This document shows positions 2,553-64,000 of a stretch of DNA of 64,000 nucleotides, one piece after another. Source of the stretch: Paraspadella gotoi (Eukaryota > Animalia > Chaetognatha); contig CM119263.1 of NCBI GenBank assembly GCA_051294375.1, positions 20,829,661 through 20,893,660 on the forward strand, written 5' to 3'. The notes below the pieces were generated by a model. The model was not told where the DNA came from. It worked only from the letters and a program-made list of their open reading frames with translations, and did no database searches. Position numbers and translations under genes: made by a program. The number at the start of each line of letters is the position of its first letter. Positions within the stretch are counted from its first letter, which is position 1.

Positions 2553-2768
2553 ATTGGTGTGGGCGCAGCTATTGGTTCATTGATTGATTAATGGAAGTGA
2601 AAAATATTATTTTTAATTGTATATTTTATTTTATTAAAAGATGAAAAAAGAAAAGAGATAGAGAAAGAGAGAGAGAGAGGGAGAGAGAGAGAGAGAAGAG
2701 AGGGAGAGAGAAATAGGAGGGAGAGCCATTCCAGGGGGCAGGCAAATTCATGCCCTTGGGGGCCACCC

Positions 2769-3123
2769 CACTGAGAAAGCTTGTATAGAGAGACCTCCAG
2801 GTTAAACTCCCGCTCTTCTCCGGACCCACCAATCGCCTACACTGAGAAAGCTTGTATAGAGAGACCTCCAGGTTAAACTCCCGCTCTTCTCCGGACCCAC
2901 CAATCGCCTACACTGAGAAAGCTTGTATAGAGAGACCTCCAGGTTAAACTCCCGCTCTTCTCCGGACCCACCAATCGCCTACACTGAGAAAGCTTGTATA
3001 GAGAGACCTCCAGGTTAAACTCCCGCTCTTCTCCGGACCCACCAATCGCCTACACTGAGAAAGCTTGTATAGAGAGACCTCCAGGTTAAACTCCCGCTCT
3101 TCTCGGGACCCACCAATCGCCTA
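2769..3123. repeat. 71-bp tandem repeat, 5 near-identical copies
   Basis: Units start at 2769, 2840, 2911, 2982 and 3053 (CACTGAGAAAGCTTG...AATCGCCTA). Confidence 0.95.
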
Positions 3124-3556: not shown

Positions 3557-4236
3557 TGAAGAGACAGTAATTATTTATAAGCGTTAATGACAGAACCGTT
3601 CAATATAAGCAGTCCCTGAGCTTTGGATCAGGCTGTAACACCATATTACAGGCGGTTTAAGCGCCCCGTCCCTCTTAACTGCTAGGCGGCCACCGGGCTA
3701 GAACCCCGGACCTTTGGGTTGGGACGCGAATGACTTGCCTTTGGCACAAATGGCCGCTAATGAACGGTTGGTGAATTTTAGTCTAACATATATAATTTTT
3801 ATATTGGTTGTACCAATTTCATATATTGGTTCTACCAATTTCATACATCTCCCCCCCCATAGGGAGAAGTCTGTTGTGTCTCTTCAGTGAATTGTTGTTG
3901 TTGGTGGAAAGTTCGTCACCAAGTTGAGGCATGTCGCCTGATGGCGGAAAGTGCATCGCCAGGTTGAAGCATGTCGCCTGAAAGTGTTGTTGTTGCTGTT
4001 GTGTTTGGAAGTCGGACTCACCATGAAGAGACAGTAATTATTGTTATGTGTTAATGACAGAACCGTTCAATATAAGCAGTCCCTGAGCTTCGGATCAGGC
4101 TGTAACACTGTGTTACAGGCGGGTTAAGCGCCCCGTCCTCTTAACTGCTAGGCGGCCACCGGGGTTGGGAGACGAATGACTTGCCTCCGGCACCAATGGC
4201 CGCTGATGAACGGTTGGTGGATTTTAGTCTACCATA
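3557..4236 (-). mobile_element. Miniature LTR element (TRIM/retrozyme-like), family A, full length
   Basis: Two LTRs (~3557-3790, 4024-4236), PBS TGGTGAGTCCGAC (4011-4023, minus), G-rich PPT (~3850-3858), TSD AGCA on both sides. Confidence 0.9.
4077..4148 (-). ncRNA. Twister-ribozyme motif (type P5 permutation), family A 5' LTR
   Basis: Minus strand reads GCAGTT-AAGAG-GACGG-GGCGCT-TAA-CCC-GC-[P3 CTGTAACAC/GTGTTACAG]-CCTGA-TCCGAAGC-TCAGG-GACTGC. A mutated second copy lies at ~3609-3682. Confidence 0.75.
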
Positions 4237-5505: not shown

Positions 5506-5608
5506 TATGGTGGACTAAAATCCACCAACCGTTCATCAGCGGCCATTGGTGCCGGAGGCAAGTCATTCGCCACCCAACCCAGAGGTCCGGTGGTCGCCTA
5601 GCAGTTAA
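5506..5608 (+). mobile_element. Family A LTR 5' fragment (tRNA-like head only)
   Basis: TATGGTGGACTAAAA...GCAGTTAA matches the family A LTR start. Confidence 0.85.
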
Positions 5609-10315: not shown

Positions 10316-13300
10316 ACTCGGAAGGAGTTCGATCCAATGCGGAATATTCTTCACGCCTGATCCTTCGAGATTCACCATCTCCACATTTGCGAAGAGTTTG
10401 AGTTTTTCCACGGGTTCGATCACTTCGATTTTGCTGTAGAAAGATGGAGATGTGATAGAAAGAAATTGATATGGACCATCAGATAGGGATGGAGATGGAC
10501 TTCCCTCTGCGTTGGCAAAGCAAGACCGTCCTAGGGTAACCGCGCCAGTGACTGGAGGCGTCACTGAGGGTCGGAAGCCCCCAAAGCCAACAGTGAGATG
10601 CCCCATCCCAATGGGCATCACAGGCAACTCAGCTGTTGCCATACCTACCATTGATATCCCCACAACATTTCTCGCCTCACCTTTCATTCAATCGAATCTC
10701 CTTGAGGTGAGCGACGTCGTCTGCTTTGACTGAATCCTCGATGATGAGACTTTGGATGCTGTTGCCTCGAGTCCACGAGTTGCGCCTCTCCGCGCTCAAG
10801 TCCAGCGTCTGGTTGAATGGGACATTAAGGGAGGGGTAAAAGCGATTGAAAGAATTTGTTCACTTAAAAATTTCTTGCGTAAAAGACAATGCTTTTTTTT
10901 ACCCTGTTATCTATAAATTCTTTTTAATCGTTCGAGTGGCAACCTCAACATAACAACGGCTGAAAGTTCAGAACTTGCACTTTCAACTTCCATTTATAGA
11001 ACTCGCCAAAGCGACAAATGAAAATTTAAAACTCCTTATGAAATTGGTACAACCAATATAAAAATTTCCCATTCATTTAAATAATTAAGCTATCTTGCCC
11101 CCGACTTTGGATAGGCTTTGGTGGTTTAAGGCATCCATCACTCTTACAGATAATGACATAGCAGGTTCCTTCAAGCTTTCAATCAAGACTCTCTCACAAT
11201 CTTGTTTATTCACTCCCAGACTACCTGGCTTCCCTATCAATGAAGTGGTATAATGTTTCAAAGAATGTTTCAATTGTATGAAAAGACCACTCCCTTAAGT
11301 ATATTATATCAAATTATATTATTATCATTCAATTCTATTCCTTGGTGACTTATCCTTGCGCATTTCTTACATATTGTACCCCTTATTGACTCAACCTCGT
11401 CCTTTCCCTGCGTATTTCTTGAAAATTGTTTTCATTGGCGATTCACCGTGGGAATTTCATTTCGCATTTTTATCAAGCCATGACCGGCGAAGCCGGTTCA
11501 AGGCTTGATATTCATTCGGGTGAGCTTCTTTGTGACGTAGTCGTCGTCGTCGTCCTCGTCGTCCGTCACGCTGTTTTTCTATATAAAACTACTACGCTTT
11601 TATAGGTTTGGCTGTGACTTACCGTTTTTTAAAAATAAAAATTATTATGAATTATGATAAAGTTTTACAAAAGTGTGCATTCATAGTAAGTTAAAAATTT
11701 AGATAATGGCTTCTCATCTTGAAATAGCTTTGATATTTTCTTATTACATTTGGATTTAAGTATTTTTGTTTGAATTTCCACTTCATTATGATTTACTGCA
11801 ATATGCAAATGAGATTATAGTACTCATTATCATATTCCAAATTAGTATATAGAAATGCTTTAATCTAATTTACATATTGCAGTATATAATATTGAAGATG
11901 AAATTCAAAAAATTTTTTTTAAATCTCTAATAAAAATGGGAACTCAAAATAACTTTTTAATGAGAAGCTATATCTTAATTTTAATACAAATAAAAATAAA
12001 ATCTTTTACAAGCTGCGATTGGAAAAAATTGGAAAAATTTCAAATTGTAAACCATTGTAACATTTTTTGCCTTTCTTTTTATTTTTTTTATTTCTTTTAT
12101 TTCAGAAAAAAACGAGTTTCAGTTTTTGCACTGACTGTACAGCGGCCTTCAAACAGCTGTCCAGCTTTGTCTCTCTTTCTCTCTCTCCTCTCTCTCTTTC
12201 TCTTCTGTCTCTTTCTCTCTTTACGATCTCTTGCGTGATCGTTTCTTTTTTGAAAAATTATGATTATGTTTTTCTCTTAAAAACTTTTATTTCGGGCTTT
12301 TTTCTCAATACAAAATCCCAAATTTACATCCGAGATTTTCGTGGATACATTTTTAAAAAGTGAAGAATAACTTATATTGACATGCATTGTCACATATAAA
12401 TCAGCTAATGTGACTTATTATATATGCAGCACTTTCGCCGAACAATATGCATTACATTTAAAAAAATAAATTTGTAATTTATTATTATTGTAACTTTGAA
12501 CCGGTTGCCCACTATTGGCAAATTATATCTTAAATAGTAGAGTTGATAAGAGAGATATAGTCAAATTAAACATTACTTTTTTTGTTATTCTGAATATTTA
12601 TACTATTATTAATTTATAAATATTTTTAGTGTATATATTAATCATTTTTATCTTTTTTTAAATAATAATTATTTGAGTTGTGAATAACTATTTATAAATT
12701 ATTAAATATGCAAATATAAAATTTGACCTCGGTCTGTTTCTTCCTAAAAAGAACAATCAAAAATTTCATTCAAGATAATTTTTTAAAATGAGGAAATAAA
12801 ATTTTTTTGATAAGTAAAAAAATATTTGGAAGTCAAAAATATTATAGTCGTTAACTGAGTATTTTTCAACTATATATTTGTTAATAGGGATTATAATTTT
12901 TGGATCAATTATTATTGAATAAGAGTGAAAGAGAGTTTAGTTTTTTTTCTTCTGAATAGGGGTAGCCCCTCTCAATGGGGTGAATCAAAAATTTTGTATG
13001 GGAACATGCTCAAACGAAATTTTATGCTTTTTTAAGTTTACTTTTCAATGTACAAAAAATTTTTACATGTCTCTATAGTCTCTATATGTCTCTTATACCA
13101 ATATTTATTTTGTAATATTTTTTTATAGAAAGGAAAAGAGTTCGTCCCTACTCATATTCGTCGGAAAATGAGTTCAGCTCTGCAGCGGCGGTCCAGCGGC
13201 GGTCCCAGCGGCTTGTCCAGCTTCTCTCTCTCTCTTTCCTCTCCTCTCTCTCTCTCTCTCTCTTTTTTTCCTTCTAAAAACTTTTATTATCGCCATTTAT

Positions 13301-16750: not shown

Positions 16751-19700
16751 TCTCAATGTTTGTTGAAAAAATTATTTGTGATTTCAATGCTGATATGAAG
16801 GCTTGAGTGTAAGCCGAAACATGTCCAAAGTTAATAAAAAAAATTTATTGTTCCAAGAAAATTTTCGTTTTTAATTAAGTAAATAAATAAATAAAAAAGA
16901 AATAATAAAAAAAACTTAAATAAATAAAGGAACAAAAAGAGGGCTTATGAAAAAAGGGACAAAAAGGAAAAATTAGCCAAAGAAAGAAAATAAAAAAAAA
17001 ACAAAAAACGTCGATGGCAGAAAAAAAAGGTAAAAGCTAAAAAAAAGAAAAAAGCTAAGGTTAGAAAAAGATGATCGGAATGAAGAATGCAGAGGAGAAA
17101 AGGTTGATGGTGAAATTAAAAAAAAGAAAGAAGTAATGAGGTTTTAACGATTATCTGTCCACGACACGAGTGGAACATGAAACCAAGCGTAAATTTTTTA
17201 GATGCCGACGAAGTATTAATTATTTATAATACGTTCTTTTGTCGTTATTTAAATGAATATGATTTAATCATTATAACTTCCAAATTAATAGATTAATCAA
17301 AGTGAAATGAAATAAGAAAAGGACATCATCAAAGCTAAATTTTATTTTTTTTAATTAGAGATGAAAGGGACACAACTCGCTTTCACCATCTATCCCCTCT
17401 CGAGTTTCACAATCTCACCATCTTCACTTTTCTCCCTCAAAAGATGATCACCGCTTTGTTAGTTCGTGCCGCTAAAGAAGGCAGCCAACGGCCAAAAAGG
17501 CCACCGCCGCAGCCGCCGCAGCCGCCACCGCCGTAGCCGCCACCGCTGCCGCCGCCCAAAAAGACATAACAAAGGCGGAGTGGCGCATAAAAACGTCTGC
17601 CTTGTTGTTTTTACGGACAAATAGCGGAGGAGTCTCGTCACGAAACTGGTCGCGGATCGGTACGATCTTGCTCGAAAAGCATAAAGCGAAAATTGTTACT
17701 ACTGTCGGCGCCGTCGTTTGAAACGTTGACTAAAAGATGGGTCAGTGTCCGCTCTTATAGAGTCAGGTCGGTTCCGTCGGGTGTGTTATTTGGGGTTGTG
17801 GCGGAAAAAAGAGGTTGTGGGGGTAAGGAGAGTGGGATTGCCGTGATGGGTAAGTTTGCGGAGAGCGGAATAAGGTTGAGCCAGAGAGAGAGAGAGAGAG
17901 AGAGAAAAATTGAATGGCAGTAAAAAATTTCGCGGTCGACAGTAAAACGTCCGAGAGGAGGGAGCAGCGGGCAATGTGACCTTTGGCAACGGACCGTGCA
18001 AGATTGCGGACCGGACACTGATGGCGGTGACGTGTGTCTGATTAAATCATGTGTAATATTGTATATTATAATGTAAAAATATCAACATCTGAATAAAAAA
18101 ACTTGACGGTCTGTCTCTCTCTCTCTCTCTCTCTCTGCCATTCCTACATCCTTTCACTAACAAACTTCAAAAAACCTCTTTAAACTCATAAGAAAAAAGA
18201 GGGGACAGCGCCACGACCCATGACCCGACCAGAATATGAGACGGGAAGCCGCTCGACCTATGACCCGAGGTCGGAGATGAGACGAAGGCGGGCGACGCGA
18301 TTACCTTTGATCTGACCTAAAACAAATGACAGGAAATGCAAAAAATCTCAGGCAGACATTTTCGTGACCGAAAAGTTTTTCTCTTTGCGTTGGTCGACGG
18401 ATGACAATTATAATTTATATATGGAGACAAAACTGAAAACATATGAAGATAAAAAAAGTTACAAGCAATTTAGCTCCATAACAACCTTAGTACGAACGCT
18501 GTTCAGTTAGGTCTAAAAAAATGGGAGTTCATCTTCCTCCAACCCAACCCATGGCATAGAGAGATACCCCGGGATCCGATTTTCCGAAACCAATGGCAAC
18601 TGACGGAAAAATCTCTCAGATCGTAATAAGTGTGGAGGTAATCCGAACGATCGGAGAGGCATGTCGACCACTTTTCTCTCAGTAACTTCAGCATTAATTA
18701 AAAAACCAATCATGCCAATCATATCTAATCCACTCTGCTTAGAATATCTTATTCCAAAATAATCAATGTCGTTCCAATTAATGCATCTCGAATAAAACGT
18801 CGTACATTTTTTAAATTTGGCAAAAACCCTAATTCGAAATTTCTTATCGTTACCGATCTTAAATTTTATTTTCTTGAATAAAAAAAAACCAAGAACCTCC
18901 AAAAACTATATAATTTGTCAATTTGTTGCTCTTTTTCTTGCTTTTTCTTTCGAAGAACCGCATATACAAAGTAGTAACCTAAAAATTTATAAATTCATTA
19001 ATATCATGGCATTCAGAAACAACGATCACCAAGGTTTTTAGTTGCGCCACAAGTACTCACTGAGCAACTCTATAAGTCTAGGCGAAAATCTTGTTTAAAA
19101 AATCTTAAAAGTATAGTGATCTCGCCAGACCTTACTATCAAAGAAAATTAATGAAAAAGCACTATAATCTAATTTGCAAGTTAAAAAAATTATGCAAGTT
19201 TAGAAAATTATGCAAGTTTAAAAATTATACAAATTGAAAAAATTATGCAAGTTTAAAATTACATGCAAATTGAAAAAAATTATGCAAGTTAAAAAAAATT
19301 ATGCAAAGTTAAAAAAATTATGTAAGTTGAAAAATTATGCAAGTTTAAAAAATAATGCAAGTTGAAAAAATTATGCAAATTGAAAAAATATATGCAAGTT
19401 AAAAAATTATACAAGTTTAAAAATTATGCAAGTTGAAAAATTATGCAAGTTGAAAAATTATGCAATTTAAAAAAATTATGCAAATTAAAAAAATATGCAA
19501 GTTGAAAAAATTATGCAAGTTAAAAAATTATGCAAGTTGAAAAATTATGCAAGTTAAAAAAATTATACAAGTATTATGCAAGTTGAAAAAATTATGCAAG
19601 TTGAAAAAATATATGCAAGTTGAAAAAATGATGCAAGTTGAAAAAATGATGCAATTTAAGAGGAAAGGTCATTCAGCATAACAATACGTAATCATTGATG

Positions 19701-20969
19701 TGTTAGAGCTAATATGTCGAGAAATACATTATAGTCATCAGTAATCACAAAGAAATAAGTTCTTATTTATTTGTGTTCATTCTGTTTTCAATATTTTTTT
19801 TTTAAATGGGTAAATAACAAAATTGTTAAGTTAAATGGGTAAGCACATTTTTTAAAGATTTGTTTTTTCAATCTGGTTGTTAAAAAATTCTAGTAAGAAG
19901 TTAAAACACGGTATGGGATAGTTTTAGAGGGAGAATTGTTGGTTTTTCCAGTCATGAACAAAATCTTCAGTTAAAATGATGGTAAAGAAATTCGAGCTAC
20001 AATGAATCTACACTGAATTTGAAGAGTTGCAGCCAAAACGACTGCAATAATATTGAATTAAAAATTTGATTAGCAATCTTAAAAACATTTGTAAAAATGT
20101 AATAGAGAGACATTTTGATAAACGCGTTCCAGTTAGAAAGAATTCAGGGTTAAAGTTTAAAAACGTTTGATTTTCAAGGATACAAGTTGAAATTTAAAAA
20201 ATGTCTCTCTATTACATTTTTCTAATTCAGTAATAAAGAATTCATAAAAATATCAGATGGATTGGCCTTTTCGTTTGACCTGCAACTCTTCAGATAGGTT
20301 TCTTTTTATTTTATATTATAATTAAAACCGATATAAAATGGGGTAGAATGTGAAAGTGAATACATTTCGGAATCGCCAGGAGCTCAGCTTTTCTGAATTT
20401 GTACTCCATTTTAGCCTATTTTGAAGTTGAATTGAATGACCTTTTTCTTAAAAAATTATGCAAATTAAAAAATTATGCAATGTTAAAAAAATTATACAAG
20501 TTGAAAAAAATTATGCAAGTTGAAAAATTATGCAAGTTGAACAAATTATACAATTTAAAAAATTATGCAAATTAAAAAAATTATGCAAGTTGAAAAAATT
20601 ATGCAAGATGAAAAAATTATATAAGTTTGAAAAAATTATACAAATTTAAAAAATTATGCAAGTTAAAAAAAGTATGTAAGTTGAAAAAAGTATGCAGGTT
20701 GGCAATATAAAAAGTGTGATGCGACGGACGACAACAATAACGACGACGACGACGACGACGACTACGTCACAAATAAGAATCAGAAGCAGCAGCGACGGAG
20801 AAAAAGAGAGAGAGAGAGCGACATATAATTAAAGAGAGAGAGAGAAGCTGAACTCGTCCGGTTGCCTCGGAGGTAGCGCGAGCTCCCCCCAATCTAAAGA
20901 CTCGGGTTCGCGGCCCTGCTAATTCACAAAAGAAAAGCAAAAAAAAAACTGAATAAAAAATTGTTTTGT

Positions 20970-21020
<51 letters not shown>

Positions 21021-24000
21021 AGAGTGAGAAAGAGAGAGAGAGAGAGTTTTCCCACCAACGAGACGCATTATTAGGTCACTCTCGTTTATTTTCGGTTTTC
21101 CGTGCCTCGCAACGGCGGCTGAAATTGGTTCATGTTGATTTATCACGTAACGTTTCCGTTGCCATTAGGTCATATTCCTCGACATTGTTTACATTGTTTA
21201 CATTGTTTTAACCACGAAATCTAGGTCAAGTAAGTTATTGTATTTTGGGATTTTGTATTGAGATAAAAATAATAAATGGCGATAAAAAAGTTTTAAAAGG
21301 AAAAAAAATAATCAGAATTTTTAAAAAATGAACGATCCACGCAAGAGATTCATACAGAGAGAGACAGACACACACAGAGAGAGAGACAGAGAGAGACAGA
21401 GAGAGAAAAGGCACACAGAGAAGACCAGATGAGAGAGGACACACAGAGGAGAGACCGCAAAACAAATTAATTTTTAGAACCGTGATAGAAATAAAATTGT
21501 GTTAGTATATGTGATTAATAACATAAACAATAACTTCTATTTTTTTTTAAATTGAAATAAGAGCTTAGAAGCGCTATAGAAAAAGAAGCCAGTGACTTTT
21601 TTTCTATATTTCTATATCGATAGAGTTGTGGAATTGACGGGGAATATTGTAAATCACAAGTTTTCGCTTAATCGGACCTCACATTGTGGAGAAATCTTAG
21701 GGAAACCCATCAAAATTCACCCCTTTTTTTTCAACATTCTCGCCTTTTTATAGATTTTCGCCGATTCTGACTTCCTCTTACAAACTTATAAATTCCGCTA
21801 GTTAATTTTTTTCTTAAAAAAGAAGGCGAAGGGAATCCATACTTTCTGTTATTTTATGATTTCTGGGTAAAAAAATATAGATGAATTACATTATTATTGG
21901 GATATTAAGAAAGTAAAATGTCTTGTGAAGCCTGTGAGAGTTAAATAATTAAAAGATTCGCCTATTTTTATTATGAAAAATGACATTAAGTGAAGTAGTT
22001 GAACCGTCTTCCAGCGTCATTTCACTAAACATTCACTGTTCTCTAACAAAAATAATGTTACTTTTTGCTGGTGGAAAAGAAAGATAAATAGTTAGGCTGT
22101 GATGGGGTGAATAATATTTTGTAGAATTTTGTGAAGCATGCTTGTAATATCAGGCAAGCAAAGTATTTAGTGAAAAAAAAAATTATATTTCCTTTATCCA
22201 AAAAACTTTAAAGTTTTACTATAGTACAATTTAGCCTTTTTTCTTTCAGAATCACTAAAAAGAATTTAATTTTCATTTTATTTTATGGGTTTCATTAGTT
22301 TTTAAAATTCATTATAATTTTGACTTAGTTTGACACTCACCCTGTAAAGAGGTTTCAGCAAAAAATAATTCTAGATATTGTAACTTGTATGTGCCCAATG
22401 ATTATGGCTTCATTTTGTACTATTGCCATCCCTGCTATCTTTGTTTCCTTCAAGAGATATCAGGAAAACATCAGTTTTTTTTCGTCTCAACCTTCCTTTT
22501 AATTCCTTATTAAATAAAAATTTTCATGTTGTCAAACCAGACCATTGGACTTTACAATGCGTTGGTTTACTATGAAGAGTTTGGTCAATATGAAAAAGAA
22601 AAATTTGGCAAGCTGCTTGAGACAAAGAGGCCTTTCTAATCTCAAATTCGAAGTTAATATTTTATAATGTTAACATACCCTAGCNNNNNNNNNNNNNNNN
22701 NNNNNNNNNNNNNNNNNNNNNNNNNNNNNNNNNNNNNNNNNNNNNNNNNNNNNNNNNNNNNNNNNNNNNNNNNNNNNNNNNNNNTTTCTTTTTTTCCTCT
22801 ACTTTTGTCTTCGAGTCTTCGAGTTAAGGACGGAGTTGAAACGGACCACGAAGGCGACAGGAAACCTTACCCTCGTTACGATCTTGACCATACCCAATTC
22901 ATTCGTCGAATCGGGTGATTAAATGCTGCTTACTGCTCAACGATCATAAATTGCGATTTATGATGCATCGAAGCGGTTGCCTAACAAATTAATTTACTAC
23001 AAATTAATGTAGTGCATTGTACAACAAAAAATTATGTATTACAAGCCTGTTTGAGAATAAAAAAAATTGAATTTTCCCCCTTAGAAAACTGAGTAAATTT
23101 CGGTTCCATTGTTACATTATTTTCTTGAGAGTCAGATTGTATATAAAATAATTATATAACAATGTAGTCTCAAAGGTTAAATAAATAAATAAATAAATAT
23201 ATATTATATATAAATTGAAGAGACAGTAATTATCGTTATATGTTAGTGACAGAACCGTTCAATATAAGCAGTCCCTGAGCTTCGGATCAGGCTGTAACAC
23301 CGAGTTACAGGCGGGTTAAGCGCCCCGTCCCCCTTAACTGCAAGGCGGCCACCAGGCTAGAACCTCTGCTGCATTTTCTAATAAAGAATTGATATAATTT
23401 TTGCTACTTTTAATAAAAAAAATTATGTCCATTTTTGTCCATTTTGACTTTTGTCTTGAGATTTGAACGTCAAGATCATTGAAGAAAATTTTTTTACTCT
23501 GGATTTTGGGTACTTCTTATCTTCTTTACCACTGAGTCGGTTAATTTGCCATTGGTAATCCATTGTTTGCCTATGAATTCATTTTTAAATTGACTAGTCA
23601 AAAATTTACATTTTTACATTTCATTACAATTTGTTCTACGAAAATACTTCAAAATATCCACAAATCTAATAAAATATTTCATTTCAACGGTGCTTCTGGT
23701 ACCTAAAAAATTAGGGCAAAAAATTTAATAGTTTTGCAGCAATTAAATTTTTAAGTCAACTTTTAATTTGTAAAGGATTTGTGAGGTGCCTTTTATTTGA
23801 ACTAAAACTGGGTTTTTGACTGATTTTATAATTTTAATAGATGAGAAATATAGTAAGGTTAAAAAAAAACCGCATTCTTTTAATGTAATGGAAAGCATCA
23901 GTAATTTTTTTCCTCTCAATCGACAGGTTTTTGCGGAAAAAATTTTCGCAAAAATCTCGATTTTTTAAATCTGCTAGGCAACCAAACTTTGAATAAAATC

Positions 24001-25759
24001 ATACGATACTTAATAATTTTTTCTTACAATACATTTTAAATATTTTTATACATCCAGTATGATATAAATGGAAAAAATGAATGAAAATGAGAAAAAGATA
24101 AGAGAAGAGAGAGCATGGGGAAAAAAAGAGAGAAAGAGTGGAAAGAAATTAATATAGAGAAGGGGGAGAACGAAAACAATTAAGAGAAAAAAAAAGATAA
24201 GAAAGAGGGAAGAAAGGGAATCAGAGAGGGAGAGAAAAGCAGAGATAGAGAGGAAGAGAAATAAAGGTAAAGGAAGAAAAGAAGGGATGACACAGAAAAA
24301 TATGAGGACAGAAAAGTCGGAGATAGGGAGAGAAAGAGAGAAAGAGAGAAAAAGAGAGGGACAGTGAGAAGGTTCAAGAGAGAAAAAAATAGTGAAAAAA
24401 ATGGAAAAAAGTTTTAAAATATAGCGAGCCGTTTTTGTTTTTTTTTGCCTAAGCTGTAGTATATCTAAAAAACGCGATAGATCTGACGAGCAATTTAATC
24501 TTTAAAAGTTGTCCTTACCATGAAAAATCGTTTTAGTTTCATCTTAATTAGGGTAGATACCTTAATTAGAATGATTAAGCCTTAATTTCTTTTACCTTAA
24601 TTTAAGGTAAAAGAAATTATGTCTTACCATATTTTGAAAGCATAGAAATTCACCCAGTGAGTTCGATGTTATAAGGAGAAAATAACTATAGCCAACCGTT
24701 TTTTAAAATAAAGCATGTTTTATATTAATCAGTGGAAACAAAAGAAATAATAGCTATATAAGCCGAATATAAATCACTGACATATATGCTCCCTCTATTT
24801 CCAGAAGACAACACTGACTTCCCCTTCCCAAAATGAGTTATTAGATATAATGATAAGTAAAAAATTTTTAAGAAAGCGATACATTGTAGTGGTAGTATTT
24901 CATACCCCACTACTCGTCCGAGAATCCGCAGCACCTATGCCATAGGCTATGGCGCCGGAGGTAGCACGAGCTCCTCCCAACCCAAAGGACTCGGGTTCGC
25001 GCCCTGCTGATTCACACAAGTAAAAGCGGGACGGGGCGTCTAACCCACCTGTAGTGTCGGACTACAGTCCGATCCGAAGTTCGGGACTTTGTGTGCAACG
25101 GACGGTAAACTGCTCGCGGCATCGTTTTCCACAACATATATATATAAATATAGATTAAAAAGTAAATCCTTCATAAAACATAAAAATAAAAAATAGTGAA
25201 ACAAGTAATTTGAAAATTTTCATATAAATAAATAAATTAATTAATTAATTAATTAATTTTTTTCCTCGAGATGTAATCCGATAAACCAAACCATAGACCG
25301 TGACTCATTCATTCACTCGTTTAACCCGGAAGGCAGTCGATCGAAGAAAAGAGGTTAAGCCTCGCGGGTGAAGCGGCTGGGGTCGGGGAGCTAAACCCGC
25401 CCTTTGACATCTTGTCGCCCCTCGCTCTCTCTCTCCCTTCTCTCTCCAGATAGAGAAGGATTCATTTTCTCTCGTAATAACTGACCGCGGCTTTCCAACT
25501 TGCACAGATAATTTCTCGATTTAACGGTTATTTCTTATATTAAGGGAGAAATTTTAGTTAAGACGAACATTGAAGTATACTTTTTTCCCTGACGATACTC
25601 CCGTTTCCTTCTCTCTCATCTTCTCACTCTCCATCTCACTATCAATATCTTACCTTTTTTCCTCTCCGCTCACGAAGGTCGATAAATTCTGATCTCACCT
25701 CCGCGCGATGAAAAAATTCTTCACTTTACAAGAACAAAATTTGCATTTCTTCCCCCCCC

Positions 25760-38380: not shown

Positions 38381-39034
38381 TGAAGAGACAGTAATTATTG
38401 ATATGTGTTAATGACAGAACGTTCATTAAGCAGTCCCTGAGCTTCGGATCAGGCTGTAACACCATGTTACAGGCGGGTTAAGCGCCCCGTCCCTCTTAAC
38501 TGCCAGACGACCACCGGCAGAACCCCGGACCTTTGGGTTGGGAGGCGAATGACTTGCCTCCGGCACCAATGGCCGCTGATGAATGGTTGGTGGGTTTTAG
38601 TCGCACCATACATCCCCCCCGCCCGTAGGAAGATGTCTGTTGCGTCTCTTCAGTGAATTGTTGTTGTTGTGGAAAGTGCGTCACCAAGTTGAGGCATGTC
38701 GCCTGATGTGTTGTGTGGCGGAAAGTGCATCGCCAGGTGAGGCATGTCGCCTGAAAGTGATTGTTATTGCTGTGTGTCGAAGTCGGGCTCACCAATGAAG
38801 AGACAGTAATTATTGATATGTGTTAAACTGTTAATGACAGAACCGTTCAATATAAGCAGTCCCTGAGCTTCGGATTCAGGCTGTAACCCATGTTACAGGC
38901 GTGTTAAGCGCCCCGTCCTTCTTAACTGCCAGACGACCACCGGGCTAGAACACCGGACCTTTGGGTTGGGAGGCGAATGACTTGCCTCCGGCACCAATGG
39001 CGCTGATGAACGGTGGTGGGTTTAGTCCACCATA
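38381..39034 (-). mobile_element. Miniature LTR element family A, full length
   Basis: LTRs 38381-38610 and 38796-39034, PBS TGGTGAGCCCGAC (38782-38794), PPT ~38613-38622, TSD GTTA. Twister motifs at ~38429-38503 and ~38857-38929. Confidence 0.92.
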
Positions 39035-44930: not shown

Positions 44931-47374
44931 AAATATATTATAATTAAAAAATAAATAAAAAAAGCAACAAAATGGTTTATTAGATTTCCCTTCAGCGCAA
45001 AGGCTCTCGAAGCACCTCTCTTGGCAAGAGAGTTCCCTAATAGGGAAAGATACATACTTTAAACAAAATTGAAACCAATAAATACTAAATTATAAGCTTG
45101 CATATGTATCAGAGCAGAAATTGTGTTTTTACAATGGCTTTTTGAAATAGATTTCAGTTGGTGAACTTTATATATCAAACAATATCGCAGTTCTTGAGCC
45201 CTGTTTACTGCAAAATATTATTACCTGAGCTTTAATTTTGTATCATAACTAATCAAATATGAAAAAGATATTTTTATGAATAATTGCTAGCTAATATTGA
45301 CTTTTGATTAGAACCATAATAGTCCAAGCTTACTCCACTTTTGATGATCCGCATTTTCTGTTTTATGTGCATGTAAAGAGCCAGAAAAAGCACTCGTCCA
45401 TTAAGTTCTTCAACACAATAAAGTTTCGGGATAAGTACTGATTCATTTAGCGCTTCTATCAGTTAAAGTTTATCGAAGTTTTTGTTAACCAGCAAAATTT
45501 ATAGTATCGAGATTAAGAGCAAAAAAAGCATCAAGAGATAAGGAAGTGAAGAGAGAGTGAGTGGAGTGTGCGAGGTGAGAGAAGAAACTCCATGCAGATA
45601 GTCCGACTTGATATTCAAGAATATTGCTCTACATCCGTACCACGTTGCCTACATCGGTGCTTAACTCTGATCACAAATCTACCCGAGTGAGAGTGAGGGT
45701 GCTGCTTAGTACTGATTGGGTGAGCGTCGGTGGGGTGGGTGTGAGTGTGCGTGCCGTGTGGATGAGCGCGCGAGTGTGAGCGAGGAGCTCCGAAGTTGAG
45801 CGAGAGGTTGGCCGCGAGTGAGTGTGTAATGGGTACCCAGGGATATTGACAAATATATATGATTGAAAAATGCATATTTTTCTCAATTATCATTTAAATG
45901 GAGCTTCAGAATGAATCTTTTCAAAGGGAACTGCTGAATATAAAAGCAATTTTCTTTTGTTCCAACATAGAAATAATCATCTTGAGAGCCAAAACCTTAA
46001 GACCAAAATTTTGTTATAAATAAATATGTGGGGGGGGGGGTGGGGATGACCGGTGAGCGGTGGTGAGAGAGTGTGTGGTGTTCGAGGGCAGGGAGGCTGG
46101 AAGCGGTGGAGAGGGTGCGCCGGTGTGAGAGTACAGGAGCGTGGTGGTAAGCAGGGGATGAAGGAGGCTAGGTCGAAGTGATGTGAGAGCTGGTGCCGAG
46201 AGTGTGGTGTGGCGGTAGTGTTTGGTGGTGGTGGTGTGGTGTGGTTTATTAATTTTTAAGTTGCCCACTTTAATCAAGCAAGTGGGGTTTTGGCTGATAC
46301 TAAAGATTACAGACACTTGAGTCCTTTGAAATTTATAATAACTATTAAAAAATGAATCTGAAGATATTTTATGAACACTTGGTAACTATATATTGTTATC
46401 TTTTGTTATGAAAAAATTAGGCCCATAAATACGACTTGCTTCTGATAAATCAGCATCTGTTTTCTATGCAAAAGCAGAGTTAGAAAAGCTCGTCTTCAAG
46501 TTCTGGCAGGAGACAGAAAGTGGGTGGTGTGTTCATTTTCAACTATTCAAGTAGAGGTTATTGAAGTTTTTTTATCTCAGCTAATTGATATATCAAAGAT
46601 TTAGCAACAAAAGATAAAAGTCATCAACGACAATAAGGTATCCTAAGAAGTTTTATTTGCTTTGAAAGAAACTCATGCAGATAAGCCGACTTTGAATCCA
46701 TGATATGTTGCTTACGTCCAATACCCACGTTTCATACACTGGTTCTGAAATAAAAGCAATTTTCTTTTCAACATAAGAATATTCATCTTTGACACCAAAC
46801 TTTAACCAAGATTTGTAATAAAAATATTTCATGACCATCATTTATAGATTTCTCAGACAAGCTCAAGCAGCTCTCTTAAGAAGGAGTTCCATGAAGGGAA
46901 GATACATACTGCTAACAAATGAACTACTCAATTATAAGCTTCATTTTCACGTGTATATTTTTTCTTGCCATACGTTGCTTGGAAATTTTTTGAGTTAGCC
47001 ACTTAATGCAAGCAAGTGGAGTTTTAGCCATTTATACTAATAGAATAAGACCACTTGAGTGAACAGTATTTATAATAATATTAAAAGAATGAGTGAAGAT
47101 ATTTATATGAATAATGTAACTAATATTTTTAGCTTTTGATTATGTGAAAAATTAGTCCAATATTACGCCGCTCTCATAATCATCTCTCTCTTTTGCCTGA
47201 ACCGGCTTCGCCGGTCATGGCTCGATAAAAATCCTTGTGGATGATTTGGTGTCCGACCAGAAAAAAATATGATCTTAATGGTATTTTCATTTTTTCAATA
47301 TTACTTGAAATAAAAATATGAATAATATTATCATAATATTTTCATAACATTGTCACTCACTTCTTGTTATCACT

Positions 47375-48010
47375 ATGGCTTATCTTAATAATATACAAAA
47401 ATGCAACAAAAGTAGGTGCGGCACTTCTCCCTTTATTCAAGAATGTAATTTTTTTCAATCTACCCAAACAAATATAACATATTTTCCAATATTAAATGGC
47501 TCAAATACTTTAAATTGTAATAAAGAAAATATAATATATTTAATATCATGTCATATCTGTTCAATGCAATATATAGGAGAAACAAAGAATAGTCTAAGAA
47601 TAAGGTTTAATGGTCATAAACATTCTATAAGGTCAGGAAAAAGTTCTCAAATTATCCATCAACATTTTAACAATGAAAATCATGGTCTAGAAAACTTAAG
47701 AATTTTACCAATAGAAAAAATTAGACCAATGAATAATAAAATAAATCAAAATAAATTAAAACTAGAAAGAAAAGCACATTGGGAAAAAAAATTTAAATCT
47801 CTTTACCCTTTGGATTAAATGTAAGATTAAAAGGTATGGGAGATTTTGTACCATTTCAACAAAACTATCAAATATATGGAAACACAAGGAGAAAAAAACG
47901 ATCACACGGAAAAAGAAAACCAAAAAATAAAAGACCAGGGCGTATTTTTACTTTAACTTATTTAAAAAAAATATATAATAATATAAAAAATAAAGAATAT
48001 CACATGCATT
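47375..48010 (+). pseudogene. 5' fragment of a Naiad/Chlamys-type Penelope-like ORF with N-terminal GIY-YIG endonuclease
   Basis: KCNKSRC...CNKENIIYLISCHICSMQYIGETKNSLRIRFNGH...HF...PIE...LYP(LGLN), then basic RRKKRSHGKRK. Frameshift near 47810, truncated by the insertion at 48015. Confidence 0.8.
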
Positions 48011-49671: not shown

Positions 49672-51043
49672 AATTGCGACGATCCTTATGCTTTTAGGAT
49701 TTTTTTTAACTTGCATCATTTTTCTGCTTGCATCATTTTTTCAACTTGCATAATTTTTTTAAATTGCATCATTTTTTCACATTAATTAAAAAACATTTGT
49801 TAGTAATCATAAATTATTAATCATAAATAATAAAGATTCAAGTAAATGTGACTTATGTTTTTTCCATTCAAACTCATTTCCACTGGCACAATTCCGTTAA
49901 AACTTTATATCTAGCTTCTTCACACACTTTCCTATCTGCTCACAAAATTTCATCTCAATCTATTAAGGGTTAAAATACCACAGGATCCCCCCACCAGACT
50001 TCTCCACAGGGGCCTCATCCTGAGGAGATGTCTGAGAGAAGGTTTTGATCTCATTGCCATAGTGAGAGCGAGCGGGCGAGCGAGCGAGCGAGTCTGGAGC
50101 GTTACCAGAGAAGTAGGGCATAGGCGTGATATGCATACCCTAAGCGACGTAAGCGTGGGCGCACGGTGCGCAGCGGTTGCGTGTTCGAGAGTAGGGCTCA
50201 CCACTTATGGACGACACAAGTTTCAGATCAAGAATGATTTATTCTTCAACAGGTTATAAACAATAACAGTCAAAATGTCAGATGCTAAGTCTATTACAAT
50301 GGTATTTACAAAGGTCAACGATTTGACCACATATAACTGGGGGAACCGAGCGGGGTCAGGTTGTTAAGGTCAAGTGGTTTGACCGAGGTTGCGTGTTCTA
50401 TATGTTCGTCACAAGTTCCCATTTTTTATTATAGATTTAAAAAAAATAATTGAATTTCATCTTCCATATTAAATACTGATATGTAAATTAGATTAAAGCA
50501 TTTCTATATACTAATTTGATATTATAATGAGTACTTATAACTCATTTGCATATTTCAGTAAATTATAATGAAGTGGAAATTCAAACAAAAAATTCAAACA
50601 ACAAATGTAATAAAAAAATATCAAAGCTTTTTCAGATAAGAAGCCATATCTAAATTTTTAACTTGACATGATGGCACACTTTTATAATACTTCATTGTAA
50701 TTCATATAATTTTTATTTAAAAAAAACGGTAAGTCAGCAAAACTATAAAAGCGCAGTAGTTTTATATAAAAACAGCGTGACGCGACGACGACGACGACGA
50801 CGCGCGACGACGACGAGACGACGACGACTACGTCCACAAAGAAGCAATCCTAAAACAATTAATAGAGCCTGAACGGCTTCGCCGGTCATGGCTCGATAAA
50901 AATCCTTGTGGATGATTTGGTGTCCGACCAGAAAAAAATATGATCTAATGGTATTTTCATTTTTTTCAATTTACTTGAAATAAAAATATGAATAATATAT
51001 CATAATATTTTCATAACATTGTCACTCACTTCTTGTTATCACT

Positions 51044-51665
51044 ATGGCTTATCTTATAATATACAAAAATGCAACAAAAGTAGGTGCGGCACTTCTCCCT
51101 TTATTCAGAATGTAATTTTTTTCAATCTACCCAAACAAATATAACATATGTTTCCAATATTAAATGGCTCAAATACTTTAAATTTAATAAAGAAAATATA
51201 ATATATTTAATATCATGTCATATCTGTTCAATGCAATATATAGGAGAAACAAAGAATAGTCTAAGAATAAGTTTAATGGTCATAACATCTATAAGGTCAG
51301 GAAAAAGTTCTCAAATTATCCATCAACATTTTAACAATGAAAATCATGGTCTGAAAACTTAAGAATTTTACCAATAGAAAAATTAGACATGAATAATAAT
51401 ATAAATCAAAATAAATTAAAACTAGAAAGAAAGCACATTGGAAAAAAAATTTAAATCTCTTTACCCTTGGATTAAATGTAAGATTAAAAGGTATGGGAGA
51501 TTTTGTTACCATTTCAACAAAACTATCAAATATATGGAAAACACAGGAGAAAAACGATCACACGGAAAAGAAAACCAAAAAATAAAAGACCAGGGCGTAT
51601 TTTTACTTTAACTTATTTAAAAAAAATATATAATATATAAAAAATATAAGAATATCACATGCATT
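51044..51665 (+). pseudogene. Duplicate of the Naiad-type GIY-YIG fragment, heavily frameshifted
   Basis: IIYLISCHICSMQYIGETKNSLR is present in ORF 51084-51362. Confidence 0.75.
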
Positions 51666-52903: not shown

Positions 52904-53137
52904 TGTGGCAGCAAGACTTAAAGCTGCTCACTGTGTCCGTCCTCAGCCTCGTCTCAATGGTGGCAGCTAATCATCTCATCCACCGTGCGTCCGGGCATCC
53001 CGGGATCCCGTTCTGGCTTAAAGTGACGTGCCGTATAACATGCCAGTGACAGGAGGCGGTCACTGAGGTCCGCAGCCCCTAGCCAGTTGGTGAGATTACC
53101 CCGCCCCGGGTATACAGGCTATCCTCCGTTGCCGATA
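52904..53137 (+). mobile_element. Solo LTR family D-like insertion with degenerate twister motif (~53004-53087)
   Basis: Absent from the paralogous site at ~49280 (CTGACTACCC), flanked by (c)TAC/CTAC. Contains CTGGC...TAA-CAT-GC-CAGTGAC...GTCACTG-AGG-TCCGCAGC-CCC-TA-GCCAG. Confidence 0.75.
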
Positions 53138-53540: not shown

Positions 53541-54857
53541 TTGCAATTGCGACGATCCTTATGCTTTTAGGATTTTTTTAACTTGCATCATTTTCTGCTT
53601 GCATCATTTTTTCAAATTGCATAATTTTTTAAATTGCATCATTTTTTCACATAAATTAAAAAAATTTGTTAGTAATCATAAATTATTAATCATAAATAAT
53701 AAAGATTCAAGTAAATGTGACTTATGTTTTTTCCATTCAAACTCATTTCCACTGGCACAATTCCGTTAAAAACTTTATATCTAGCTTCTTCACACACTTT
53801 CCTATCTGCTCACAAAATTTCATCTCAATCTATTAAGGGTTAAAATAAGTAAAAAGATTCAATTAAATGTGACTCATTTTTTTTCATTTAAACTCATTTC
53901 CACTCGTACGTTTCCACCGAAACTTTTTATCAAGCATCGTTCACATTTTTCTACCCACACAAAAAATTTGAACTCAATCTATCCATCCAATTATGATTAA
54001 TTAGAGTACTTATTGGTTAAATAAGTAAAAATATTTTAGTAAATGCGACTTATGTTTTTTCCACTTAAACTCATTTCCACTCTCACGATTCCGTCGAAAC
54101 TTTATATCCAGCTTTATCACACACTTACTACCACACACCAAAATTTCATTCCAATCCAACCAGCCAATCACGAGTTATGAAGCTTTTTGCTAAGTGGGAC
54201 GGATGGACGGATTGATTGACTGATTAATTAATTAATGATTAATTAATTGATTAATTGATTAATTAACTGATTATTTATTTGATTATTAATACATCCTGCA
54301 TATACATTTAATATAAAAGGAAAAAGAATCATAATCAATTAGTGAAACAGGTTTTTTGTTTTTTTCCATTTAAACTCATTTCCACTCAAAAGATTCCATC
54401 GAAACTTGGTTTCTTAAAAATTTTTTACTTATCATTATATCTAATTACTCATTTTGGAATGGAAGTCAGTGTTGTCTTCTGGAATTAGAGGGAGCATCTA
54501 CAGGGATGTTTACTGAAATGAGCCGGAAGACATTCAACTTCTTCACTTTAATTTTCAATAATAAAATAGGGGAATTTTTTAATTATTTAACTTCAACAGG
54601 CTTCAGGAGACATTACACTTTCATAATATCCCAATGTTAATGTAGTTCATTATATTTTTTTAACCTGAAATTATTAAACAAGTTTGAGCAACAAATGTCG
54701 GATCTGCCTACGATAATTAATGAATTAAATAATTAATCGATTAATTAATTAATTAATTAATAATTTTAATATGTATATGGTTAATCTTTCTTTTTCGTTG
54801 TCATAGGTATTAGAGAGAGCAAAGGAATTTGAATTTAACAACGATTTTATTATGTAC

Positions 54858-54902: not shown

Positions 54903-55481
54903 GACATTCATAATAAATATTTTGTGCAAAAGAGTAGTGTGAGAGAGAGAGAGAGAGAGAGAGGAGGGTAAAGAGTTTTCCAACAAAGTGGTGAGACAGA
55001 ATAGTGGTCAGATGATTGAGACAGGTTGAAGTGAGGAAGATTGAGTGAGTTGTGAAAGAAGTGAAATTGTTAAAGAGAGAGAGATGAGAGAGAGAGAGAG
55101 AGAGAACAAAAAACAACAGGATAAATAAAATAATAAGATACATTTTTGCAATGTACAACAAAGATAAGAGATGTTTGAAAAACTAAATTGAGAAATTTTA
55201 ACATTTAACTAGTGAATAAATTAAGTAATTGCTCAAGCGGATAGTTGAAGTGAAAATGAATCTGAAAGAAAGTAGTTTTTAGTTTTCAGTTGATAATTGA
55301 GATTAAGAAAGTAACGTTCAAGGGAAAGAAAGAGCTCAAAGTGAGCTGCCCCCCTTGTTGCAAATGAGGACAAGACGATGTGACGGGTCATTGGCGTGTC
55401 AGTGGCTGAGAGGAGAGTATGAGAACTGATGAATGCCGGATTGGGAAGCGATCCTTGCGGAAAGATCCACCAGGGCTACTC

Positions 55482-61665: not shown

Positions 61666-61949
61666 TGTGGATAAGGTGCTAAGTGGGCTGAGGATGAAGA
61701 TATCTAACTTCTTTAACCCCCTCTAGCAGCTATGGCACGGGTCCTGGGCTTGGAACCAGGCTTGAGGGTTTTCCACGCCCCCAAGGCGGCTTACAGCCGT
61801 CCTCACACTTCCAGCAGGGTAGGTACCGGGTTGGGATTGAACCCGGTACTGAGTGGTCATGAGCTGACGGCTTTACTCAATGAGCCACCGGGTCACGACT
61901 GAAGGTGTCATGCTTAGAAGCGGGGTGAACTTTGCTATGCCCGACTACA
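61666..61949 (-). mobile_element. Solo LTR, family C (tRNA-like head plus twister motif)
   Basis: Minus strand TGTAGT...CCACA, TSD TTAC, and the empty site is visible in the opposite pLTR arm. A-box TGGCTCATTGAG and B-box GGTTCAATCCC (~61830-61893). Confidence 0.88.
61741..61812 (-). ncRNA. Twister-ribozyme motif (type P5), family C
   Basis: GTGT-GAGGA-CGGCTG-TAA-GCC-GC-[CTTGGGGG/CCCTCAAG]-CCTGG-TTCCAAGC-CCAGG. T1 covaries to TCC/GGA. P5 is weak. Confidence 0.72.
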
Positions 61950-62404
61950 TTACTACTTATTTAACTTTTGTTATTAATTCAAAATCTCAGCTTATTTTTA
62001 AGTTTTTCCAAATTTATCTTTGTTGTACATTGTCAAATGTAATTATTTCTCTCTCTTTCACTTTTCACCATTTCAAAATTATCTTCTTCTTCTCTGTTCT
62101 TACTTTCACCTGTCCTCTCATCTGGCCACTGTCCTTTACTCAGTCCTTTGTTTGAAACTCTCCCTCAATCTCTCTCACTCACTCTCCGAGAAAATTACTG
62201 GACCAAATTCATTTTTTCTTAAATATTTTGCTTATATTTATTTTTAAAAATAAATAAAACAATATATTTTCTTTTATTGTTTTAATTTCATTATCAACTA
62301 TATTTTTAATTTGTTATTACTATATTTTAAGCCCAAAATTACTTTTCCCAGATGGCATGAAATATGAGTATTATGGTGGACTAAAACCCACCAACCGTTC
62401 ATCA

Positions 62405-62477
62405 GCGGCGCATTGGTGCCGGAGGCAAGTCATTCGTCTCCCAACCAAAGGTCCGGGGTTGTAGCCCTGTGGTCGTC
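62405..62477 (+). promoter_or_regulatory. tRNA-derived Pol III (A/B box) head within the LTR
   Basis: TGGTGCCGGAGG (A-box-like), CGCCTCCCA (resembles a Gly-CCC anticodon loop; cleaner in the second LTR), GGTT(C/G)TAGCCC (B-box-like), closing GCGGCCA/TGGCCGC in some copies. Confidence 0.6.
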
Positions 62478-62479
62478 TG

Positions 62480-62553
62480 GCAGTTAAGAGGGACGGGGCG
62501 CTTAACCCGCCTGTAACATGGTGTTACAGCCTGATCCGAAGCTCAGGGACTGC
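62480..62553 (+). ncRNA. Twister-ribozyme motif (type P5), family A 5' LTR
   Basis: GCAGTT-AA-GAGG-GACGG-GGCGCT-TAA-CCC-GC-[CTGTAACA/TGTTACAG]-CCTGA-TCCGAAGC-TCAGG-GACTGC. Predicted cut between 62503 and 62504. Confidence 0.8.
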
Positions 62554-62901
62554 TTATATTGAACGGTTCTATCACTAACTCATAACAATAATTACTGTCT
62601 CTTCATTGGTGAGCCCGACTTCCGAACACAACAGCACAAACAACACTTTCAGGCGACATGCCTCAACCTGGCGATGCACTTTCCGCCCACAACACATCAG
62701 GCGACATGCCTCAACTTGGTGACGCACTTTCCACCAACAACAACAATTCACTGAAGAGACGCAACAGACATCTTCCTACGGGAGGGGGGGATGTATGGTG
62801 GACTAAAACCCACCAACCGTTCATCAGCGGCCATTGGTGCCGGAGGCAAGTCATTCGCCTCCCAACCCAAAGGTCCAGGGTTGTAGCCCTGTGGTCGTCT
62901 G

Positions 62902-62975
62902 GCAGTTAAGAGGGACGGGGCGCTTAACCCGCCTGTAACATGGTGTTACAGCCTGATCCGAAGCTCAGGGACTGT
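62902..62975 (+). ncRNA. Twister-ribozyme motif (type P5), family A 3' LTR
   Basis: Identical core. Predicted cut between 62925 and 62926. Confidence 0.8.
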
Positions 62976-63963
62976 CTTATATTGAAGGCGGGCGGTTCTA
63001 TCACTAACTCATAACAATAATTACTTTCTCTTCAGTATCAGCATTAAGTATGTAAACTACTTGGCTACTACCAGACCCAGAACCAATAAAATTATTAAAG
63101 AAGATTAATTCATTGATAAATAAAAAAATTAACAGATAATAAAAAAATTAGTAATAAAAATAAGGATGCATACATTTAAAGAGATTTGCATTGTAACATA
63201 TTCAGTTGTATCCTGATATGATTGGCAAGATTAAAACCTCGATCAAAGATGATGTAAAAATGTACACAAGACTCAAGTCGCCCAAAACCGTTTTGTATCT
63301 TATTTAGAATGTCAAAGCTCATTAGAATTCTTTGCAGAATATGATAGGGATTACTCAATACCTCCCTAGCTGATTATATTAAAAAATTCGAGCTCGATAT
63401 GAAAAGTAAGTATCCTATGGATATGATTTTCAAATAAAAAAATCTAAAAAAAATTTCTTTCTATTTTTTTATCATTAATAAAAATTTTAACTCAAAGTAA
63501 AAAAATGATATTCTTGAACATACTGAAAAATGTTTATCTTAATTAAAAACAACTATATAATAGACTCCAACCCCAATCACCAAACACCAAATACCAAACA
63601 CCAAACATATTCTTAGCTATTAATTTTTTTTTTATAAAATTATTTTATCTTACATTAAAAATATTTGGGCTAAAACTAATTGAATTTCAATGTTGAGCAA
63701 ATTAAAGTTTTATATTTGATAAAGATTTTGTTTAAAAATTAATACCGAAAAATATCCTATTTTGTTATTTTTTTAATTTTATATGAAAATTTACAAAATT
63801 ACTTGTTTCACTATCTTATATTTTTATATTTTATGAATGTTTTACTATTTAAACTATATTATTTAATTATATACTTTTTTAAAATATTATTTGATTATTA
63901 TATCTAATAACTCATTTTTAGAGGGGGAGGTCAGTATCGTCTTCTGGAAATAAAGGAAGCATC

Positions 63964-64000
63964 TGAAGAGACAGTAATTATTGATAAGTGTTAATGACAG
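63964..64000 (-). mobile_element. End of another family A LTR, running off the window
   Basis: TGAAGAGACAGTAATTATTG...TTAATGACAG. Confidence 0.8.

Follow-up and report, generated by a model that had tools for sequence, protein, structure and literature searches.

Two kinds of small non-coding LTR element, described separately, come closest to the repeats reported here. The Helenus/TRIMp3 elements are TRIMs with tRNA-like LTRs, a primer-binding site (PBS), a polypurine tract (PPT) and, in the animal members, a 4-bp target-site duplication (TSD) (PMC10886601). In the sections of that work on which we draw (Kojima, 2024), they have two LTRs and a published size range of 311–1263 bp, carry tRNA-like A and B boxes in the LTR, occur as several families and solo LTRs within one genome, and use a Trp-type PBS in the wasp Helenus-2; their transcription by Pol III is described there as unvalidated. 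Plant LTR retrozymes, in the sections used of Cervera, Urbina and de la Pena (2016, PMC4918200), have a self-cleaving type III hammerhead at the same place in both LTRs, a non-coding core, a Met PBS, a PPT and a 4-bp TSD. Their LTRs measure ~350 nt and their units 600–1000 nt, solo LTRs accompany them, a Gypsy helper is presumed, and circles have been shown for them.

The ribozyme that most resembles the fold described below is the type-P5 twister (RF02684), which has a strand order that opens at P5, the pairings T1 and T2, the GA and UAA of L1, L4 and P4. This class is reportedly that of Roth et al. 2014, and dimer-dependent hammerheads are said to be tied to Lunse et al. 2017. In the sections drawn on of PMC7761336 and PMC7229834, such hammerheads are found in Penelope pseudo-LTRs and amphibian retrozymes, where the closing helix is reduced to a palindrome and each transcript holds two copies. 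Twisters are tied in the literature covered only to non-LTR elements. According to the part used of Liu et al. (2021, PMC8501958), the T-variant twisters of Schistosoma Perere-3 have an altered P1 that is formed partly from the target site and lie at the 5' end of a non-LTR element, and an LTR-type reverse transcriptase lies within 10 kb of T-variants in 1.6%; twisters of RTE elements are mentioned as in preparation in the part used of PMC7761336.

The window (the whole stretch of 64,000 nucleotides of Paraspadella gotoi DNA that was analyzed) holds three complete elements of one family, which we call A, 654–680 bp long and with the distinct TSDs GTAT, TAAC and TGCT (Table 1). In each of them, two LTRs of ~235 bp enclose a short non-coding core of 185–233 bp that begins with a tRNA-Trp-like primer site and ends with a polypurine tract. 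At the level of sequence anatomy, this layout establishes that the family A repeats are LTRs. In A1 and A2, the two LTRs of the element are closer to each other than to the LTRs of other elements (about 95%), while the two LTRs of A3 are not mutual best matches. The small indels of A2 could reflect either decay or assembly error. All three elements have TA rather than TG right after the TSD (at 62372, 39034, and 4236), and in A1 and A2 a TG sits between the PPT and the 3' LTR. The extra bases that follow the PPT of A3 (3794–3845) match a 30-base stretch just downstream of the fold of family E (11037–11066).

Table 1. Positions of the LTR-like units and twister-like folds in the window.
Feature	Position	Strand	Remarks
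Complete element A1, 663 bp, TATGG...TTCA	62372..63034	+	TSD GTAT; LTRs 62372–62605 and 62794–63034, 98.7% identical
A1 primer-binding site	62606..62619	+	13/14 bases as in the tRNA-Trp PBS of wasp Helenus-2 and Gypsy-32_NVi (compared by eye with Fig. S2 of PMC10886601)
A1 polypurine tract	62780..62791	+	directly 5' of the 3' LTR
A1 5' LTR twister-like fold	62480..62553	+	predicted cut after 62503
A1 3' LTR twister-like fold	62902..62975	+	predicted cut after 62925; unit 422 nt
Complete element A2, 654 bp	38381..39034	-	TSD TAAC; LTRs 97.3% identical; predicted unit 426 nt
Complete element A3, 680 bp	3557..4236	-	TSD TGCT; LTRs 92.0% identical; 46 extra bases 3' of the PPT; broken pairs in both cores
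5'-truncated family A LTR, intact core	23216..23364	-	sequence similarity and descriptor
Family A LTR fragment, head only	5506..5608	+	sequence similarity
Family A LTR 3' end, cut by window edge	63964..64000	-	sequence similarity
Family B LTR-like unit, probable solo LTR, TGTAGT...CCACA	24885..25133	+	TSD ACAT at 24881–24884 and 25134–25137
tRNA-like head of B	24950..25003	+	box A-like at 24950, box B-like at 24994
B twister-like fold, P5 order	25013..25095	+	GA at 25030; predicted cut after 25041
Family B fragment, tRNA-like head without core	20868..20938	+	sequence similarity
Family C LTR-like unit, probable solo LTR, 284 bp	61666..61949	-	TSD TTAC; box A-like at 61887, box B-like at 61843
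C twister-like fold	61737..61816	-	GA at 61804; predicted cut after 61793
D1 twister-like fold, 8-nt palindromic P1, broken P2	10511..10591	+	antisense in a probable 247-nt intron
D2, decayed D1 relative, insertion of ~229 bp	52904..53132	+	core 53013–53086; approximate empty site near 49280
E, P5-order twister-like fold without P3, partly decayed	11094..11151	-	T1 CCA/TGG, T2 AC/GT

The family B unit comprises 249 bases with TG...CA ends between 4-bp target duplications, and its 71% identity over 142 nt with the family A LTR shows that the two are homologous, not independent. Because of this homology, B is probably a solo LTR. Family C has the same TGTAGT...CCACA ends and lies in one arm of a fold-back repeat, the opposite arm of which is an empty site with a single TTAC; from its ends, TSD and shared anatomy, it is also probably a solo LTR. 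A reading made earlier from the sequence alone had spoken of a twister fold in four divergent LTR families, with B and C as solo LTRs that have these ends and 4-bp TSDs. The ends and duplications were found as it had described them, and the solo status of both units is probable on the grounds just given; A qualifies as an LTR family by anatomy, but to speak of four LTR families is too much, as D1 has no demonstrable LTR ends or TSD in the flanks examined. An AT-rich host repeat with copies at 24783–24876, 54410–54500 and 63874–63962 holds both the B insertion and the family A insertion at the window edge.

For D1, one 5-bp and one 6-bp TSD candidate were set aside, being about as many as a rough chance estimate gives, and the boundary of the 5-bp candidate cuts a conserved exon. 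A TGTAG...CCACA pair at 10435–10664 was likewise rejected as the ends of D1; no TSD flanks it, and the complement of its TGTAG is a probable splice acceptor. The probable intron (10434–10680) lies in a leucine-rich-repeat gene, of which three paralogous repeats (9788, 14040, and 14809, minus strand) are uninterrupted at this point, and the D1 site is a candidate for intron gain from the element. In D2 one A of L4 is changed. The flanking sequence of E contains no LTR ends or boxes.

Family A thus has the non-coding design of Helenus, with two LTRs, PBS and PPT, while A, B and C share with animal Helenus the tRNA-like boxes in the LTR and the 4-bp TSD (5/5 complete units); the coexistence of several families with solo LTRs and the Trp-type PBS agree too. 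Relative to the Helenus material drawn on here, a fold of ~75 nt resembling a twister, 3' of the tRNA head, is peculiar to the present elements. In the main text of PMC10886601, a term search found “twister” absent and “ribozyme” only in a reference; supplement parts 1 and 5–9, inspected by eye and with short-motif searches, contained no twister, the coverage of the fungal parts 2–4 being incomplete. In the same supplement (DataS1), the sequences Helenus-2_SyJa-LTR and Helenus-2_SyUm-LTR of gall wasps, which have a tRNA-Trp PBS, show by eye what resembles a complete type III hammerhead directly 3' of the tRNA head, its loops I and II being complementary to each other across ~12 bases; the main text, in the sections used, is silent on it.

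The likeness to plant LTR retrozymes extends to the placement of the self-cleaving motif (predicted here) in both LTRs, the non-coding core, PBS, PPT, TSD, solo LTRs and the presumed Gypsy helper. In contrast to them, the present elements have a twister-type fold, a Trp-like PBS, tRNA-like boxes in the LTR, shorter LTRs (~235 nt) and shorter units (422–467 nt), and their circles are predicted from sequence. A pattern search found no hammerhead core inside the LTRs. As the hammerhead and Met-primer features are absent, we do not file the element as an LTR retrozyme, although it may work like one. Non-LTR retrozymes and Penelope pseudo-LTRs consist of tandem units without PBS and PPT and have no short fixed TSD, and family A does not fit this description. 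The fold shares the named features of type-P5 twisters, but here there are a P3 hairpin, a 2-bp P2 and a loop-less palindromic P1, and it falls below the Rfam threshold. Like the Perere-3 T-variants, it has an altered P1 and lies in a retrotransposon, but it is permuted, internal to the LTR and present in two copies. The palindromic closing helix and the two copies per transcript are shared with dimer-dependent hammerheads, a different ribozyme in a different class of element, dimer dependence being hypothesized here. A full-text literature search that covered few subscription papers, and in which hits were judged mostly by title and abstract start, found no report of a twister in an LTR or of a ribozyme in Helenus. 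The combination of the Helenus design with a ribozyme would make this a retrozyme-like element with a twister, for which we found no earlier report.

The strands of the fold follow the order P5-P2-GA-T1-P1-UAA-P2-T2-P3-P4-L4-P4-P5, which is circularly permuted and opens at P5. As the sequence-only reading had listed, T1 is CCG/CGG in A and B, TCC/GGA in C and CGG/CCG in D1, and T2 is GC/GC in A, C and D1 and AC/GT in B; E adds a fourth T1 pairing. P3, of 7 bp, and P4, of 5 bp (3 bp and an A.C mismatch in D1), vary in sequence and keep their pairing, and A, B, C and D1 all have GA, TAA and AAG, so that this part of the description also holds. The general-base G, the U-A-A cut site and the adenines of L4 are found in all of these and in E. 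P2 is short, at 2 bp, in A, B and C and is broken in D1, and 3/7 family A cores have a broken pair in P2 and/or T1.

Selection on the RNA fold, likewise proposed before, is well supported by the comparison of these sequences, because the pairs change between A and B without breaks and the double changes exceed both the shuffled and the slid controls. In a gap-free core alignment of A and B with 22 pairs (three of them P1 self-pairs), 15 are unchanged, 3 are changed on one side, 4 on both and none is broken; when the 11 A–B substitutions are placed at random, all pairs survive with P = 2e-5. The comparisons of C with A and with B give 10 and 11 double changes, respectively, with 22/22 pairs kept in each. 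In an alignment of seven rows (five A copies, B and C, at most three lineages; D was excluded as misaligned), 97.3% of cells are paired vs 86.8% after shuffling and 22–50% after sliding, and both sides change in 11/21 pairs vs 2.1 when shuffled and 0–2 with slid partners; the structure was read from the same rows, and these statistics are not equivalent to an R-scape test.

A strict descriptor of the fold gave 8 matches in the window, against 0 across 40 locally shuffled copies of it, and a looser one 7 sites vs 2 in 20 shuffles; both were shaped on these sequences and on a general twister consensus, so that all one can conclude from 8 vs 0 is that noise does not commonly produce the pattern. 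As a more independent check, a model trained only on A, B and C recovers D2 at 19.3 bits (E 3e-5) and E at 17.1 bits (E 2e-4) and scores D1 poorly (6.6 bits, E 1.7). Pattern scans for relatives gave no metagenome loci in a first round and 12 metagenome loci and one viral locus in a second, none of which exceeded 9.4 bits with the model; we judged them chance matches.

Rfam reported no twister above threshold in the whole window or in six short stretches. Its best result was a partial match of P4/L4 of C to positions 38–58 of Twister-P5 (RF02684), at 16.8 bits vs a threshold of 37.6, and it gave no twister match for A, B or E. The 58-position Rfam model probably fits the P3 hairpin poorly, which would account for the missed matches. 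According to the part used of PMC11662667, direct tests show that natural twisters can have a defective P1, P2 or P4 and still be active; what they need is the catalytic G and A together with both pseudoknots. A, B and C retain the pseudoknots and catalytic bases on which tested twister activity depends, and judged by sequence these three families very probably carry an active twister.

P1, which lies between T1 and the cut site, has no room for a loop; it is 6 bases long in each of A, B and C, and 8 bases long in D1. It is fully self-complementary (G.U allowed) in 4/4 of the best-preserved types vs 3–5% of LTR hexamers, and not fully so in the decayed D2 and E (0/2). No P1 hairpin is predicted for A, B or C, and the pairing of two P1 strands is worth -6 to -11 kcal/mol. 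By exchanging halves, two LTR copies can form one nested structure with a full 6-bp P1, and this swapped fold beats two local folds by 5.9, 1.1, and 3.6 kcal/mol; each of these alternatives is 14–25 kcal/mol less favorable than the unconstrained optimum, and a pseudoknot-free ensemble gives the P1:P1 pair a probability of 0.0, the energy models used omitting pseudoknots. The loop-less palindromic P1 hints that the two LTRs may jointly form a double twister. In the part used of PMC5408937, P1 is dispensable in known twisters, and therefore a single copy may cut. Provided that the fold is active, we give dependence on the dimer, as modeled, roughly even odds.

Upstream of the twister, the LTRs of A, B and C contain box A-like and box B-like motifs 44 nt apart, and box pairs as good were found in 19, 9, and 1 of 1000 shuffles, respectively. 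Box A deviates from TRGCY in A and B, and D1, D2 and E have no box pair. Neither ARAGORN at default settings nor Rfam at normal thresholds called the head a tRNA; ARAGORN matches at lowered thresholds were discarded, as the twister itself was then also called a tRNA. The tRNA-like promoter boxes, PBS, PPT, permuted order and loop-less palindromic P1 were all absent from the sequence-only reading. Family A has no T4 run, which is not significant given that 5–16% of shuffles lack one likewise; the 3' end of B carries a T4 run.

Our preferred reading, to which we assign a probability of about 0.6, is that these are gene-less miniature LTR elements of the Helenus design whose LTR twister-type fold likely self-cleaves and feeds a retrozyme-like circle mechanism. 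Transcription by Pol III would begin ~100 bases upstream of the cut site, in the tRNA-like head of the 5' LTR, and then read through, which we propose because family A has no T4 run. The fold would cut U/A at the same place in both LTRs and thereby release a unit of 422, 426, or 467 nt with a 5'-OH and a 2',3'-cyclic phosphate. A host ligase would then close the unit into a circle; in the part used of PMC7229834, RtcB closes the ends of retrozyme monomers in vitro. As the released unit would have no terminal repeat for minus-strand transfer, a two-LTR DNA copy could arise only from a circle or multimer, the template assumed in the retrozyme model (PMC4918200 and PMC7761336, in the sections used). 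A Gypsy-type reverse transcriptase primed by tRNA-Trp would copy the circle across its junction, and the Gypsy integrase would insert the copy with a 4-bp TSD; later recombination would leave solo LTRs such as B and C. The Gypsy helper is presumed because of the PBS and TSD, and a six-frame motif search found no Gypsy protein motif in the window. A less certain step is that the loop-less palindromic P1 might make cutting most efficient in the swapped double twister and so spare the single-copy circle.

A more specific version is put forward tentatively, and we regard it as somewhat doubtful: a lineage of Pol III LTR retrozymes, probably in an animal, in which the permuted twister cuts only when strand-swapped between two LTRs and frees a 420-nt circle whose lone copy is silent, within a tRNA-Trp-primed branch of Helenus with an exchangeable ribozyme slot (twister here, type III hammerhead in gall-wasp Helenus-2).

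Several rivals to the circle mechanism must be weighed. The first accepts an active twister and makes it an end-former or attenuator only, which trims read-through or Pol III transcripts, so that replication would proceed, as in ordinary Helenus, from a linear RNA that keeps a repeat reaching from the tRNA head to the cut site or to the LTR end, and no circle would be needed. In the published material used, most animal Helenus LTRs have no ribozyme; their tRNA head is followed by a short tail, which in most cases contains a T run. In family A, which is without a T4 run, the ribozyme could replace the terminator. Moreover, the predicted circles are only moderately structured (52–55% paired; z of -2.3, -0.4, and -4.0). 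On the other hand, the same fold occupies both LTRs, where cutting at the 5' copy removes the repeat unless it is partial, and B has the fold and a terminal T4 run together. We consider this explanation unlikely.

The ribozyme-free Helenus bear on a further claim as well. The sequence-only reading had concluded that the structure is probably required for transposition. Most animal Helenus LTRs have no ribozyme in the material drawn on, and therefore elements of the Helenus design move without one; as a general rule the requirement is unproven, and these elements would argue against it.

A second rival treats the fold as a passenger: the tail of a Penelope-like element would have supplied the twister module in a single capture, and the module would have been retained for something other than catalysis, for instance RNA dimerization or packaging via the palindromic P1, or transcript stability. 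D1, D2 and E sit outside recognizable tRNA-headed LTRs, the window is rich in Penelope-like remains, and the predicted energy of the P1 duplex speaks for such a role. The conservation of the catalytic G, the UAA site and both pseudoknots while the stems turn over is nevertheless expected for catalysis and needless for a pure structure, which makes the passenger explanation quite improbable in our view.

The elements might also be tRNA-headed SINEs or Penelope pseudo-LTRs (non-LTR retrozymes), their two-repeat layout being a tandem duplication. The pairing of a tRNA head with a ribozyme resembles schistosome SINEs (PMC6765202, in the part used), family A begins with TA rather than TG, and D and E have no LTR ends. 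Against this, three independent insertions share boundaries marked by 4-bp TSDs, with the PBS directly 3' of the 5' repeat and the PPT directly 5' of the 3' repeat; non-LTR retrozymes have neither PBS nor PPT, and their TSDs are longer (PMC7229834, in the sections used), while a TA start also occurs in some published Helenus LTRs among those considered. For family A this interpretation is largely refuted, and overall we find it very improbable. That the fold is a chance pattern in GC-rich repeats has a negligible probability: the sequences were known when the descriptor was written, and no Rfam threshold was reached, but the shuffled windows gave no match, the gap-free A–B compensation is hard to obtain at random, and two more copies were recovered by a model not trained on them.

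If the retrozyme-like circle reading is correct, the locus joins Helenus/TRIMp3 and retrozymes, LTR retrozymes extend beyond the plant hammerhead elements, and the twister gains a concrete role in an LTR element. An element of 660 bases would then make it testable whether the retrozyme circle is the real template of reverse transcription and whether a natural twister is switched on by the pairing of two copies. As Rfam misses the variant, similar ribozymes in repeat libraries may be under-counted.

The window also holds repeats of other kinds. Among 13 matches to the hammerhead core, nine (16426+, 33924+, 58028+, 60482+, 60986-, 54897-, 15829-, 14951-, and 7404-) resemble minimal type I hammerheads, most with a short palindrome after them and several inside long fold-back repeats; by sequence, these nine sites are probably Penelope pseudo-LTRs. 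Broken Penelope-like GIY-YIG and reverse transcriptase remains occur at 47348–47815, 51017–51472, 55440–57526 and 59483–59956, the GIY-YIG match having an E of 5e-4, below the Pfam cut-off. Judged by the sequence, the host is a eukaryote with introns, and the 4-bp TSD, the type of PBS and these Penelope-like remains make an animal likely; protein searches with the window gave 0, 0 and 3 hits, and the Atlas gave generic leucine-rich repeats only. Tandem arrays of 18-bp and 71-bp units lie at 2139–2592, 19129–20728 and 2698–3123.
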